DNA of 64,000 nt. It comes from Pseudogymnoascus verrucosus (Eukaryota). The notes under the pieces were generated by a model. The model was not told the origin of the DNA. It searched no databases and worked only from the letters and a program-made list of their open reading frames with translations. Within the stretch, counting starts at the first letter, position 1. Each line of letters starts with the position of its first letter. Below, in pieces: positions 245 through 7,438 of this stretch. Made by a program: the position numbers and the translations under genes. The stretch lies in the NCBI GenBank assembly GCA_001662655.1, contig KV460211.1; one strand, given 5' to 3'.

Positions 245-1634
245 TTACTTGACAACCCGTCTGAAAACGCCCACAAACCCGCCTCCCACAACCCTGTCTC
301 CCACTTTAGGACGGCAGACCATGTTCCACCCATCACCCTCGGGTTTAAGAGGCTTAGCTTCTTTCGGTGTGGTTTCAGCAATTGTCTCTGCCGCTGCCTC
401 ACTCCCCTCCGTCCCACTCTCGACAGCCTCTTCAGCACCCTCCACCTTCTCCGCCTCAGCCCTAACAAACGACCTGGCCCTCACAGCTCTAACATCCCAC
501 ACCCGACCCCCCACTCCAGCCGCTTGACCAATCTCCAACGTCGACTCTAGAACCAATGGCAAGACCTCTTTCTTCGCCTGCTTAACACACGCAATAACCT
601 GCGTGATACTCGGACAAAACACCAGCACCGTGCCGTCTTCCTTCAGCGCCTGCGAGATAGTCTCAAGATACAGATGGCAATCTGGTAAGTCTAAGATGGT
701 GTGGTCGAGGAACGGCTCCGGTGAGGTAGCAAGACGCGATGCGATATATTCCGGAATGGAACCGACGTGGAAATCGACAGAGTGCGCGTACATCCCCTTT
801 CGCCAACCAGCAACGACGGTCTTGGCGTGTGCGCTGTGGCGGGCGCTCACGTCGAGGGTGGTTATCACGGCGCGGCGGGTGGGTTTGTAGGCTTCCCATT
901 TGTCGACCGCAGCCTGGTGTTCGGCGTCTACTAAGTCGGAGGAGGTGCCTTCCTCAGAGTCTGGCGCTGGGGCGGGACGCGGGGGGGAGGGAATGGGAGG
1001 TGGGGCTGGGTTGGCGGCGTGGATGGCGCGGGCGAGGTGGAGGGTAAGTGCGCCGTGGCCGGTGCCTGCTTCGAAGATTTCGAGTGGGGGAGAGGGTGAC
1101 GAGGAGGAAGGGTCGGGGACGGTGGGGTTGAGGTCGAGGAGGGAGACTATTAGGTTCGCGTCTGCGGGATAGACCTGTTTACTCGTGTTAGCTGCCATAT
1201 TTGAAGATATGGTTTGAGCAGGACACCTACAGGCGTGACAATCCGTGCCGTCAAATTTGTATACTCTCCCAACGTAGGCTTATATATCCTGTATTCCCCC
1301 TTCCCAGCCGCGACGACCGCGCGCGGAGAGAGCCCGATAATGGATTCATGATCGATGTGGCCGGTGGTGGTGTTCACGCGCCTCCCCGGCCGTAGGGGCT
1401 TGGAGAGGATCTGCTTGGCGGAGGCGTCGGTTTTTTTCTGAACGAGGACAATGTCATTCTCTGGAGGAGTGTCAGTGGAGTGTGGTGGATGAAGAAATGG
1501 AAATTTCATGGGGGATGGGGGGTCGGACCTTGGAAGACATAGTTGCTATAAGAGCGAGCAGCGCATGGTGAGTACGCGCTCCTTGCCACTACCCGATGAA
1601 GAGCACTTCCACATCGTGTGAAAGTAATTGGCAT
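245..1634 (-). CDS. TRM61: tRNA (adenine-58-N1)-methyltransferase catalytic subunit, probably mitochondrial; 3 exons
   Basis: Spliced reading MPITFTRC..YVFQ/ENDIVLV..TLGEYTNLTARIVTP/VYPADANLIVSLLDL..IFEAGTGHGALTLHLARAI..ILDLP..VFCPSITQV, with GCD14/Trm61 motifs. Arg/Ser-rich N-terminus. Intron 1528-1461 is GT..CAG. Confidence 0.88.
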
Positions 1635-2089
1635 CTTGAAGCCGTCGAATGGGTACAATTGGCAAGTCTTGGAGGTCAATATAAAAAACGGTCCCTGAAA
1701 GCGGAACGGCGCGGAAAAGAGCCGAGAAAATTGGCAAGCCACCAAGGTTACTCAAATCGAGATTTGTGAGCACAAAATAGAAATCTAGGCTCGTATAAAT
1801 TATGACGGATTAATTAATTATATAATAACAGTTCTAATTACGGAGGACTCGAAAAATGCATAGCCTTGGGAACCTCTTTCGTATATAACGGGTAGTTCCC
1901 ATGACCAGCGGCTCCACCAGCTTGATCGTTACTGATATAGTCACCACTGCCCATGGCTGTCAGCGGCCTCTACGGATTGAATCCTGTCAGATAACTGTTA
2001 CCGTTGCCACTGAGCTGTTGTTAACGCTTGGTATACTGTCACCGGTCAAGTCCTGTTACCGAGGTGAGGCGGGATTCGATGCGCTGGTT

Positions 2090-3820: not shown

Positions 3821-4263
3821 GGTGGAGATCGTGGGCTTGGAGGGTTTTGCTTGGGAGGTATGGATTCGATTGGATATCTGGTCAGTGAAGTTATTGAGTG
3901 AGTTGCTTGAGAAGGTCCAGGTCCGAGGTCGAGAGGTGTAGATGCATTGGGACAAGGGTAGGTACGGGCTGACGACATTGTCTTGGCAACCTCGATTTAC
4001 ATGTGATGTGGTACAGAATCAACACCAAATGATAACTTGTTATATAATTGTAGGATTGGTAATTCTATATTGATGATTTACTAGTTTATTGAGCTATAGG
4101 CCACATAATTGTGAACAGCTGAGGATATTTCTTCTTTATATAATACAATATACAAACTATATACATCTACGTTCTCAGGTCCATCCACCAAGGTCCTCCG
4201 TAGCCCTTTTCCCTTACTCCCACAATATGCCAATTGGGTATCTCCAGTACTGTATACAAACCT

Positions 4264-5412
4264 CTAATTGTCTTCTAACTTTGACAAAAACTGCTGTAGC
4301 TTCCAAAGCCACTGCCTCACCGAAACCGTCTCTTGCTTATCCTTGACCACCACAAACTCGTGGCACATGATGTTCGGGAACTGGGCTCTCAAGCTATCGA
4401 CGCCCTCTTGGCCAAGCAGCATAACAAGGTTATGCAGCGGAAGTTTCTTCTCCCAGTGCGGTGGGTATGAAATCGTCGCGAATTGACCAGGACCCTTCTC
4501 ATCTGTGATCGGCGAGGAAGTCAAAGGTGCCTGAGGTAAGTTCGTAGCAGCTTCGCCCTCCACCCGCGGCTCTGGGGTATCCGTCCCCTCCTTGTAGGGC
4601 CCCAGCCATAGCAAAGCGCCCATCTGCTTCTTCTTCACCACGGCGTCCCACGTTTTCGCATGCGAAAGTTGTCCCTGATTCCACTTCATCAGCGCCACAA
4701 GCTCCCCCTCAACCTTTTTCCTCATCATCTTGCACACAAACTCATCCATATCAGCTCGCCACCTCAACTTCGCCCCAGGACCCACAGCTGGATTCGAAAA
4801 CCGCGCCCACGACCCCGTCAACCCACTACGCTTCGAATTAACCGCCTCAAGCAGCTCCTGGTTAGCGAGCACATAGTTCCGTCGTCCCGGCCGGGAACGC
4901 TTATTTGTCTCCGTCTCGTCCCTCTCTTCTCGAGGCACGCGCGTGGTGAGGTCACGAGGGAGATACCACAGCTCGTCTGTATCCGGACGGGGTACTAGCT
5001 CGAAGGGCTGTAGGAACGAGCGTGGGAGCCAGGTGCGCGTTAGTGCGCACAAGCGGACCGGCTTGGAGAGGGCGACGGCGTAGGGGTTGCGCATGAGCCG
5101 TTTCTGGAAGGGAGTTGGATTTAGGGGTGCTGGGAGCTTGGGTTTGAGGCGAGCAGCGGTCCAGGAGGTGGCGATTGGAGCCATGAGTGGGGAGAGAGGA
5201 AATTTAGCGAGTTGGCGAGGAGTGAGAAATGAGAGAGATTGTTCGGGGCCTTGCTCTTGAGGTGGGCTTGAGTTTTGCTGCGACGTAAGACGTCTCGCGC
5301 TTGTAGTAAAATGCCGAACAGAGCTGTTGCTCACGGGCTTGGCCCCTAGGACGGAATTCTTGCTATGACGTTGGCCCAATCCTCGAGCTGTATTGGCATC
5401 TCGAAGAGGCAA
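4264..5412 (-). CDS. Probable mitochondrial protein, Rrg8-like; start uncertain (first in-frame ATG 5184, presequence-like segment lies upstream of it)
   Basis: Long ORF with NPYAVALSKPVRLC..T..LP..FL..LVP, NYVL and LHNL motifs, recalled as similar to yeast Rrg8 (not verified by search). Upstream RHFTTSARRL looks like an MPP cleavage site. Confidence 0.65.
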   Translation of the reverse strand: MPLRDANTARGLGQRHSKNSVLGAKPVSNSSVRHFTTSARRLTSQQNSSPPQEQGPEQSLSFLTPRQLAKFPLSPLMAPIATSWTAARLKPKLPAPLNPTPFQKRLMRNPYAVALSKPVRLCALTRTWLPRSFLQPFELVPRPDTDELWYLPRDLTTRVPREERDETETNKRSRPGRRNYVLANQELLEAVNSKRSGLTGSWARFSNPAVGPGAKLRWRADMDEFVCKMMRKKVEGELVALMKWNQGQLSHAKTWDAVVKKKQMGALLWLGPYKEGTDTPEPRVEGEAATNLPQAPLTSSPITDEKGPGQFATISYPPHWEKKLPLHNLVMLLGQEGVDSLRAQFPNIMCHEFVVVKDKQETVSVRQWLWKLQQFLSKLEDN

Positions 5413-5424
5413 CGTCGCGCATCG

Positions 5425-6346
5425 TCAACTGGCAAATGATCCCTCTTTACCTGCTATCGCCTCCACAATGCGATCTACAGCCCCCAATGCCCACAAATTT
5501 CCCTCATCCCCTCCGAGCCACTTCTCACCCTCGCCCACTTCCTCGCCGCCCTCATTGATGCCCTTCCGCAGACCATATATGTGTGACACAACCTGAGGAC
5601 CCACACCCGTCTGCGCGCGTAGACATGCGATGGCCACCAGTGAGGTTAGCACTCTTCCCACGGCGGGTTTATGCACGCCTGGGAAATCACTCAGGAGCGA
5701 GCCGTAGTGGTTGCTGAGGATGTGTACGGGTAGGTCGGGGTGTGCGGCCTTGAGCTTGGCTTCCAGCTTTCTGGAGTGAGGGTCGTATATTGAGTTCCAC
5801 AGCCCCTTCGCTCTTGTCTCCACTTGTTCAAGGGATTCTGGTGTGAGAGTCCTGCGTCACCTATTGTCAGCCGTTTATCCTGAGTCGGGTGGATCGAGGG
5901 ATTTACCGTGTCGGTGTCGTGGAGAGCTGCTCCGCGGTTTCTGTAGGGAGCGTAGCCCGGAGGTGTACGAGCTGGTTGAGGGCGCGGGGTATGCCATTGA
6001 AGCTGATCGTCTTAAGCCCAACTTCGCGCATGAAAGCTGCGTTTTGGAGGGAGGAGGTAGGGTTGTAAGAGGCGAGGCTGTGGAGGAGGGTTAGAGAGGC
6101 GGGAGAGTTGACGGTCATGGTCGCGGCTGTCTGTGAGATGTTAGCAGCGATGCACACAGGCGAGGCAGGAAGGCGCACGGTAAGGGCAAGCCATGGGAGA
6201 ACGCCGAGAGAGTTAGAAGTAGCTTCGCGCTGTATGTCGGAGTAGATGGCAGTGATATTATCTGGGGCGGGGAGGGGCCCAGAGCGGGCGAAAGGCGCGT
6301 TGATTGCCGCCTTGAGGGCGGGGGAAAACCTAGACATGACGGCCAT
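5425..6346 (-). CDS. AhpD-like/carboxymuconolactone-decarboxylase-fold protein (Pxp2-like); 3 exons
   Basis: Spliced MSRFSPALKAAINAPFAR..WLALT/TAATMTVNSP..MREVGLKTISFNGIPR..TPTR/..GLWNSIY..HPDLPVHI..HYG.LLSD..GRVLTSLVAIACLRAQTGVGPQVVSHIYGL. Introns have GCTAAC/GCTGAC branch sites. Confidence 0.8.
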
Positions 6347-6594: not shown

Positions 6595-7438
6595 ATGCTG
6601 CCATTACGAGTAGCTCGCGCCACAGCGCGCACTGCCATGCGTGCAGCTGCGAGGCCATATTCCTCCCGCTCGTCACTCTCCCAACAAGCACCACAAGCGT
6701 GGACACCCGTCCCATTTATCACCGAGACGATAGTGAGTAGCCAATGCGCCGACCCAAGAACCTAGCTAACCACCCCAGGGCGGCGGATGGAGGACATGTA
6801 TGTAACCTGGCCATAGTAGGAAGAGCACGCCCCGACTAACCCCCACAGCCGATATCTTCTCCAAACTCCTCCAGGAGCGCATCATCTGCCTCAATGGCGA
6901 GGTGAACGACACCCTCTCCGCATCCATCGTCGCGCAACTCCTCTTCCTCGAATCTGACGCGCCCGCGAAGCCGATCACGCTTTACATCAACTCGCCCGGT
7001 GGCTCCGTCACGGCCGGCCTCGCGATCTACGATACCATGACTTACATCCACTCACCGGTGCACACGGTGTGCGTGGGGCAGGCGGCGTCGATGGGTTCGT
7101 TGCTGCTGTGTGGTGGAGAGAAGGGACACAGATACTGTCTGCCGCATAGTAGTGTCATGATCCACCAGCCGAGCGGAGGGTACTTCGGACAGGCGAGCGA
7201 CATTGCGATTCACGCAACGGAGATATTGAGGGTGCGGAAGAGCCTGAATGAGATATATAGGCGGCACTTGACGAGGCGGAAGGAGGGCACCGTGAGTGGG
7301 GAGTGGACTCTGGAGGAGATCGAATTGATGATGGAGAGAGATAAGTTCTTGAGTGCTGGGGAGGCACTGGAGATGGGGATTGTGGATGAGATTCTGGATC
7401 GGAGAGGAAAGCCGGAGGAGGAGACGAAGAGTTCTTGA
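6595..7438 (+). CDS. CLPP: Mitochondrial ATP-dependent Clp protease proteolytic subunit; 19-nt micro-exon at 6779-6797
   Basis: Presequence MLPLRVAR.., [51 protein letters not shown] (catalytic Ser), MIHQP and MERD. Divergent from the AhpD-like gene across about 250 bp. Confidence 0.96.

Follow-up and report, generated by a model that had tools for sequence, protein, structure and literature searches.

Candidate UGA-C readthrough between an AhpD-like gene and an Rrg8-like gene in the fungus Pseudogymnoascus verrucosus

Leaky stops, tandem precursors that are cut in two and dicistronic messages have all been described as sources of two proteins from one locus, and a pair of genes in Pseudogymnoascus verrucosus, an AhpD-like gene followed in frame, across a single TGA, by an Rrg8-like gene, recalls each of them. 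The pair lies on contig KV460211.1 (GenBank assembly GCA_001662655.1), of which a stretch of 64,000 nucleotides (nt), hereafter the window, was analysed. With structure-stimulated readthrough at UGA-C in alphaviruses and furoviruses, grouped with the gag-pol pseudoknot of murine leukaemia virus (MuLV) (PMC3159437), the locus shares the UGA-C and a spacer in the range of 7-12 nt. The spacer is 8 nt here, while the distance from stop to stem is 8-9 nt in Venezuelan equine encephalitis virus and 8 nt in MuLV (PMC3159437). A bulged stem of 10-14 base pairs (bp), here a predicted one, and a long in-frame open reading frame (ORF) behind the stop are further traits of the alphavirus type that recur here, as does in-frame coding sequence under selection without an AUG of its own, although some congeners have an ATG. 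Here, by contrast, the two genes are nuclear, fungal and unrelated in origin to the viral systems; readthrough is deduced from the sequence, the stop context reads UGA-CGA, and the stem is local (50 nt) where viral stems extend over about 100-150 nt.

Closer to home, UGA-CU suffices for readthrough in Ustilago, and the cryptic peroxisomal isoforms that fungi make through UGA-CU(A) likewise come from a leaky UGA-C in a nuclear gene and alter delivery to an organelle (PMC4207609). Those isoforms gain a short extension carrying a type 1 peroxisomal targeting signal (PTS1) and need no structure, whereas here the PTS1 has gone and what readthrough would add is an entire protein of 386 amino acids (aa), ending KLEDN, behind a UGA-CG, which places the locus outside that class. 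Arg5,6 (PMC8734313) and Atp25 (PMC5063612) combine, as would our pair, an N-terminal targeting signal with an internal presequence-like R-2 site at the joint between two proteins; in Arg5,6 the mitochondrial processing peptidase (MPP) cuts the internal site, and a real N-terminal presequence is needed (PMC8734313). Their frames are uninterrupted and their products made 1:1, whereas the TGA seen here in two sequences would make the second product a small fraction of the first. Dicistronic and polycistronic transcripts of fungi (PMC4471562, PMC4503453) also unite two same-strand genes, here probably on one transcript; unlike them, our pair has locked frames and a second ORF often devoid of its own AUG. 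As for the proteins, yeast Pxp2 consists of a mitochondrial targeting sequence, a CMD domain and a PTS1 (PMC10906886), and the upstream family has the CMD/AhpD fold, a basic N-terminus and mostly a PTS1, which the window copy lacks; the likeness is architectural and no orthology is claimed. Nor is it for yeast Rrg8, required for mitochondrial translation (PMC2768984), to which the downstream family is tied by weak matches to the RRG8 Pfam model. Within the literature searched, with supplements and most subscription journals outside its scope, no description of such a fungal fusion was found; no paper was found that names any of five locus tags of the two genes, and among the matches listed none brought Pseudogymnoascus together with terms for readthrough or dicistrons.

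Members of the genus are cold-loving soil fungi. On the minus strand of the window, a three-exon gene (6337-6179, 6130-5907 and 5851-5425) ends in GSFAS-TGA (5427-5425), and its frame continues directly into an Rrg8-like frame of 386 open codons (4264..5424), the earliest in-frame ATG of which, at 5184, is codon 81. To our mind there is an even chance that structure-stimulated readthrough of the UGA-C yields a tandem mitochondrial precursor, which would then be cut at a retained internal presequence. The original prediction had listed several routes to coupled expression. Its coordinates were exact, both for the frame that runs on from GSFAS-TGA with ATG 5184 as its first ATG, and for ACG 5415, TTG 5412, the out-of-frame ATG 5422 and a 63-nt GT..AG segment at 5450-5388. 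Coupled expression stands, and UGA-C readthrough fits best of the routes listed, to which we add a previously unnoticed hairpin 8 nt downstream; a spliced fusion has little behind it. A distance of 12 nt between the genes had also been given, which presumes a start at TTG 5412, 382 codons from the frame end, whereas the probable ancestral start, at 5334, is 90 nt past the stop.

That the stop is genuine is supported in several ways. Stops with at least 120 open codons on each side number four in the window, and only TGA 5427 joins two real genes, the other three lying on strands opposite long ORFs; an open stretch of 80 codons arises in 5.8% of shuffles. A relative, L002, whose coding DNA is about 91% identical to that of the window (39 differences in 420 nt and 84 in 915), has the same TGA-C followed by 392 codons open in frame, and the 38 nt around the stop (5443-5406) do not differ at all. 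An assembly indel at the junction, which had been named as a possible refutation, is ruled out by this identity across the stop and by an independent RNA contig that covers 4775-5449 with no gap. Judged by these sequences, the in-frame arrangement is real and probably extends through the whole of Pseudogymnoascus, the genus that also supplies the closest named homologs of either protein. Beyond the genus, the profile of the upstream family matched none of 150 Rrg8-like representatives, and the clpP/Rrg8-like neighbourhood of the upstream gene was found in one of 80 homologous loci, that of L002, so that adjacency of the pair is confined to Pseudogymnoascus among the loci seen. That single Pseudogymnoascus locus of the 80 was also what the metagenome scan yielded by way of further junction DNA; scanning contigs from viruses and prokaryotes for the pattern returned five matches, none homologous by BLASTN.

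The stop and what follows it make up the candidate signal. The UGA-C (5424..5427, minus strand) is invariant in L002 and, among 69 homologous stops, occurs elsewhere only there (0 of the 68 others). Folding of both sequences predicts a hairpin of 14 bp at 5367..5416 on the same strand, 8 nt past the stop with its stem starting at +12, and all 14 pairs form in both, 13 being unchanged and one U-G becoming C-G. Pair probabilities are mostly 0.98-1.0 in the window (0.62 for one pair) and 0.69-0.78 in L002. When windows were slid along both genes, the hairpin scored best of 202 (z -4.2), with 0-3 of 300 shuffles folding equally well; with fixed windows z was -2.8 to -3.3. Set among the 69 homologous post-stop windows, a comparison not controlled for GC content, its predicted energy is -26.7 kcal/mol against a median of -11.2. 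The codons of its 3' arm spell Q-R-[HQ] in all eight fused models that span the arm, and Rfam has no match between 4000 and 6800 at E<=1.

Behind the stop the frame is kept while the amino acids are not. The 30 codons that form the linker (5335..5424, minus strand) stay open in both sequences and show one synonymous and nine non-synonymous changes against L002, with no third-position bias, which is not a coding-like pattern. Three indels, of 12, 9 and 3 nt, separate L002 from the window between the stop and the conserved core, the 12-nt one within the linker. A more distant contig from run X5 (about 84% alike) can be aligned from 6690 as far as 5402, where the 5' arm ends, and diverges beyond; past 5402 it has 265 letters for the window's 247, a net gain of 18, whereas indels of 1 nt are seen in its introns and promoter. 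For X5, and for the RNA run X9 used below, 40 of 483 differences were displayed. From GTG 5334 on, the substitutions become coding-like: codons 31-50 show three synonymous changes and one non-synonymous, and codons 69-80 five and none.

This bears on where the Rrg8-like protein begins. The residues just before ATG 5184 are the most conserved of the family in 149 representatives: within FPLSPL (5185..5202, minus strand), P is found in 104 of 109, S in 103 of 110 and P again in 110 of 110. Among the 132 representatives with a residue in the column of ATG 5184, 108 reach at least 20 aa further upstream and 33 have no Met there. Since this motif, the constraint and the extension seen across the family all precede that ATG, translation must begin upstream of it. 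We therefore think it hardly credible that the protein is made from ATG 5184 (306 aa) on a transcript of its own with the preceding 80 codons untranslated: several database models use that ATG and the stretch behind it is basic, while the motif and the five synonymous changes against none just ahead of it speak for translation. So does RHFTTSARRL (5287..5316, minus strand), the first six residues of which recur unchanged in all 16 records that cover the stretch. As predicted, the presequence-like stretch lies 5' of the first in-frame ATG. To the eye, RHFTTSARRL would fit the pattern R-x|F-x-x-S of MPP/Oct1.

Just upstream of it stands a GTG (5332..5334, minus strand; C at -3). At this position the 16 records have eight Val, two Thr, three internal Met and three Met as first residue, these last three possibly being GTG or TTG codons that the gene caller rendered as M; in the tree, the backbone of which is unresolved, Val or Thr is met in three distinct clades that lie between others bearing Met. 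As far as these residues tell, 5334 probably marks the ancestral start of a short presequence, the ATG of which was lost repeatedly. The window has no in-frame ATG between the stop and 5184, and neither do seven of 11 in-frame fused database models in the stretch shown.

A different account of the same facts is that the Rrg8-like gene has a short transcript of its own, arising in the end of the upstream gene or in the linker, and starts at a near-cognate codon (TTG/CTG 5379, GTG 5334) or at a lineage-specific ATG; the match of frames would then be a relic of history, with the inverted repeat acting as a promoter element, forming a terminator-like structure or having arisen by chance. Its best start would be TTG (5377..5379, minus strand; CTG in L002), which has G at -3 and +4 and is Leu in six of six fused models showing the site, and all indels observed in L002 lie downstream of 5379. 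The coding-like substitutions from GTG 5334 on also suit it, as do the residues M, V and T, the only ones met at 5334 and encodable by ATG, GTG and ACG, and so does a depth of about 7 in X9 over the downstream ORF against 3-5 upstream, though contig depth cannot rank genes. Against this, a transcript starting upstream of 5422 would first meet the out-of-frame ATG 5422 (A at -3; a 19-aa ORF at 5363..5422, minus strand, 9 aa in L002) and the hairpin; GTG 5334 has C at -3; and the 80 nt before 5379 or 5334 are not pyrimidine-rich (0.44-0.50, against 0.75 before ATG 6337). Neither the invariance past the stop, nor the in-frame UGA-C, nor the spacing is explained, and repeated loss of the ATG at 5334 would presumably have been costly had the codon been reachable. 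We consider a short transcript unlikely, yet it is the most serious alternative to readthrough. A second out-of-frame ATG, at 5399, opens a 17-aa ORF (5346..5399, minus strand) and is missing from L002.

RNA from a close relative (X9; spliced, depth 3-7, strand not given) shows both introns of the upstream gene as spliced joints, and one contig runs through 4775-5449 without gap or joint; the RNA extends past the downstream stop to 4045. Because that stretch is covered unspliced, RNA crosses the stop with the 63-nt candidate intron retained. Two further runs, X17 and X18, cover five and four of 30 bins, the junction lying outside them. Six poly(A)-like hexamers were looked for: none occurs in the 1161 nt past the upstream stop (5424-4264), while eight matches follow the stop of a paralog described below and eight follow the downstream stop, in an AT-rich region (3900..4263, minus strand) that is the sole one with such poly(A)- or efficiency-like motifs after either stop. 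Since the upstream copy has thus lost its own 3' end, one mRNA probably spans both genes.

Such an mRNA could also be read as a dicistron, its second ORF reached by termination and re-initiation or by internal entry at a near-cognate codon, with the hairpin holding or recruiting the ribosome. The missing 3'-end signal and the dicistronic and polycistronic transcripts reported in fungi (PMC4471562, PMC4503453) lend this some weight. Twelve ATGs precede 5334 in 985 nt of spliced mRNA, which argues against simple leaky scanning. A dicistron that relied on leaky scanning would be expected to have few AUGs before its second ORF, and re-initiation at a non-AUG codon after an ORF of 269 codons is inefficient. 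The closest ATG, 5422, at which re-initiation had been proposed, is out of frame and gives only the 19-aa peptide, or 9 aa in L002. The near-cognate ACG 5415 and TTG 5412, proposed as well, are present; both fall within the 5' arm of the hairpin and look like leftovers of a lost K-L tail of the upstream gene. Matched frames, moreover, are not required by this model, which we hold to be improbable.

Removal of the stop by alternative splicing, through 5450-5388 or another intron, would give a fusion mRNA without any recoding. Twelve database models do fuse the genes by a predicted intron, two of them (P0001, P0324) at a junction equal to 5450-5388, and AG 5388 lies within the stretch that is invariant in L002. 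The 12 models use six different junctions, however; the donor is GTGAAA in L002 and is lost in P0359 (Gly to Val), and TTGAC, the one sequence resembling a branch site, stands about 36 nt away from the AG, a distance that is 13-18 nt for both real introns. At its low depth, X9 shows the real introns spliced while retaining 5449-5388 with no joint seen, and fusion by splicing is accordingly given very little credit. Another candidate intron, 5334-5278 (57 nt, branch CTTAC), was ruled out because it would delete the conserved RHFTTSARRL, because its GT is part of ATG in some congeners and because X9 is unspliced there; introns bringing ATG 5422 into frame were set aside for want of a consensus donor between 5419 and 5365. 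A-to-I editing of UGA to UGG would have the same outcome, and correction of premature stops is known in filamentous ascomycetes (PMC11156358). In that account edited stops have U at -1, are UAG or UAA in hairpin loops and are edited in the sexual stage only, with none found in the Leotiomycete Botrytis (PMC11156358). Here the target A has G at -1 and sits 5' of the hairpin, outside it, and no change at 5425 appears among the 40 of 483 differences displayed, which leaves editing barely conceivable.

The history of the upstream gene suggests where the signal came from. Its exon 1 (6179..6337, minus strand, as are all its parts) starts at ATG 6337, a further in-frame ATG at 6346 being missing from L002; intron 1 (6131..6178; 48 nt, in frame and stop-free) is spliced in X9 at 6130^6179; exon 2 (5907..6130) has X9 joints on both sides; intron 2 (5852..5906; 55 nt, branch CTGAC 5870) also has its joint in X9; and exon 3 (5425..5851) ends GSFAS-TGA. 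The spliced product of 269 aa is identical to database record P0362. Intron 1 has a weak donor, GTGCGC (GTGTGC in L002), and its retention would add 16 aa, because it is in frame and stop-free. By residue count, the first 25 aa hold three basic residues and no acidic one, which makes the N-terminus a candidate mitochondrial targeting sequence. Exon 3 differs from L002 by 29 synonymous and six non-synonymous codon changes, a ratio by which the window copy is under purifying selection. The AhpD-like label of the original prediction is borne out by the fold: a model of P0055 (97% identical to the upstream protein; mean pLDDT 77.8), compared with 48,161 chains, had CMD, AhpD or peroxidase-related proteins as all its top five matches, the best being 4g9q (Z 12.4, rmsd 3.6, 187 aligned). 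Other searches gave little: Foldseek reached E 0.58 only, and neither a relevant Pfam match nor anything meaningful from a search of PDB sequences with the upstream profile was obtained.

A C-terminal PTS1 is present in 131 of 162 homologs by a strict definition and in 141 by a relaxed one, and is absent from the window copy, which ends FAS. The 27 Pseudogymnoascus records with an intact end divide into 17 with FAS and 10 of the paralog type, with AKL or SKL. P. verrucosus has this paralog too, with the tail YDKAKL, on a second contig (G000:C14, about 534,500-538,200; L082), where it adjoins a CoA-transferase gene (PF01144), as do or nearly do 39 of 80 homologous loci. In a quick tree both copies fall in one Pseudogymnoascus clade (support 100), the tail-less ones forming a subclade (89). 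Because of these neighbourhood counts (39 of 80 against 1 of 80) and of the clade structure, the window copy is the derived duplicate; by this sequence comparison, duplication took place early in Pseudogymnoascus, the window copy having lost the PTS1 and the paralog having kept it. That a duplicate should serve mitochondria only is plausible since yeast Pxp2, of the same architecture, is dual-targeted (PMC10906886). When the two ends are set against each other, T-Y-D-K-A-K-L-stop of the paralog aligns without gap to S-stop-R-C-A-T-L-P of the window, with the same codon for Ala in both and a single base of difference at the Lys codon. The 15 nt past the stop (5410..5424, minus strand) are therefore probably the decayed peroxisomal tail of the upstream gene, and would supply both the 8-nt spacer (5424-5417) and the 5' arm of the hairpin.

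Several side observations touch this family. The paralog has no intron 2, and lies between the CoA-transferase gene and an MFS-like gene (named by likeness to P0036, the fragment of it present having no Pfam match), a kind of gene that is near homologs in 13 of 80 fungal loci; this suggests that CoA-transferase, MFS-like and upstream-family genes form a small conserved catabolic cluster. The common name of the family in databases, 'Dol-P-Man:Man(5)GlcNAc(2)-PP-Dol alpha-1,3-mannosyltransferase' (P0015, P0017 and many records), apparently derives from models fused with a neighbouring ALG3 gene, and the long homologs are indeed gene-model fusions with other neighbours (ALG3, a methyltransferase).

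Taken together, these data lend themselves to the following course of events under the readthrough reading. A duplicated copy of a peroxisomal and mitochondrial AhpD/CMD-fold gene would have landed directly before the Rrg8-like gene, after which both the peroxisomal tail and the 3' end of the copy disappeared. Most ribosomes would end at UGA 5427, giving the product of 269 aa; with assistance from the C that follows the stop and from the hairpin 8 nt on, a small number would read through and make a tandem precursor of 656 aa. The upstream N-terminus may direct this precursor into mitochondria, where a processing peptidase would, by analogy with Arg5,6, cleave the old and now internal presequence, RH|FTTSARRL, to free the Rrg8-like protein. 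The old ATG at 5334, no longer reachable, would have been lost several times. A duplication, the loss of a PTS1, a conserved stop and frame, constraint ahead of 5184, a hairpin that can fold in two sequences and a variable ATG at 5334 are observed; readthrough seems the best reading in that it accounts jointly for the matched frames and for a linker unconstrained yet keeping its frame, and explains why spacer and stem do not vary, why the old ATG disappeared and why RHFTTSARRL was kept as an internal cleavage site. In a fuller version, the nuclear Rrg8-like gene, itself probably essential, would have no other route to expression than UGA readthrough from an unrelated gene, stimulated by the hairpin; the mitochondrial peptidase would split the tandem precursor, and the signal would have arisen afresh, once the duplication had taken place, from the decayed tail (stop, spacer and 5' arm) and the old leader (3' arm). 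This we put forward tentatively, its chances being somewhat under even.

A number of points weigh against readthrough and its stimulation by structure. The context is UGA-CG and not UGA-CU, and a 30-codon linker stays open by chance in 32% of shuffles. Junction DNA was read directly from two sequences only, the window and L002, in which the stem shows one one-sided change and no two-sided one; with two sequences there is no two-sided covariation, and a shuffle control is uninformative. The scarcity of L002 substitutions in the lower stem (one in 25 against seven in 25 outside; Fisher p 0.049), which speaks for the stem, comes from a stem-versus-loop test drawn after the fold had been seen. L002 itself has a less stable hairpin (-16 to -20 kcal/mol, z -1.4 to -2.5, equalled in 7-28 of 300 shuffles), which falls outside the eight best of 204 windows; folds of longer stretches are not significant (z -0.1 to -1.6), and, of the 69 post-stop windows of homologs, two give a stabler fold than that of the window. 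X9 passes the stop by 22 nt only, and none of its contigs bridges both genes, there being holes at 5450-5639 for this copy and at 4685-4774; as the second lies within the downstream ORF, the first is not evidence for separate transcripts. Finally, L002 and P0334/P0335 have an in-frame ATG within the linker and three records an ATG at 5334, so that some lineages, given a short transcript, need no readthrough.

The name given to the downstream protein is plausible and stops short of proof. Its family counts 862 representatives at E<=0.001, yet the protein of the window does not match the Pfam RRG8 model (PF17068); six of 40 proteins scanned match below the gathering cut-off (best 22.3 of 27 bits), precomputed PF17068 is given for four of 12 close homologs, and in an Atlas cluster at 0.94 RRG8 is assigned to 17% of members. 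A fold search gave no clear match: the likest structure to model m040c9697f221 (window 5220-4267, minus strand; pLDDT 87.7) is the YlxR homologue 1g2r, at a Z of only 4.7. The C-terminal half resembles B. subtilis YlxQ, Nhp2 and a human RNase P chain (Z 3-4), and the Atlas lists a YlxR cluster at 0.90. These scores, all below trust, faintly hint that the family could be a fusion of YlxR with an L7Ae-like RNA-binding domain.

Around the pair the genome is compact. Upstream, a divergent clpP gene (6595..7438, plus strand; PF00574, E 2.5e-71) begins about 250 nt from the start of the upstream gene, in the same order in L002; the divergent promoter region between them (6595-6346) is kept in L002 and is probably shared. 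Downstream, the next gene (3820-2783, minus strand) encodes an alpha/beta hydrolase (PF12146) that ends in a PTS1-like AKL, and database model P0347 fuses all three genes, upstream, Rrg8-like and hydrolase. Further on, the gene at 245-1751 (minus strand) resembles those for GCD14/Trm61 tRNA methyltransferases, its match to PF08704 (E 8.3e-05) being below the cut-off.

With reference to the wider biology, the candidate site is compact, at 70 nt. If a short transcript proved to be the explanation, what would remain is a mitochondrial protein whose translation begins at a codon other than AUG, a case of moderate interest. If the readthrough reading is true, a fungal nucleus would house a readthrough polyprotein in the style of viruses, and one mRNA would give two organelle proteins at very unequal levels. 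The recoding signal would have a recent and datable origin in leftover sequence, and some fungal gene pairs now filed as dicistrons or as fused models, of the kind for which predictors invented six introns here, would be readthrough loci.

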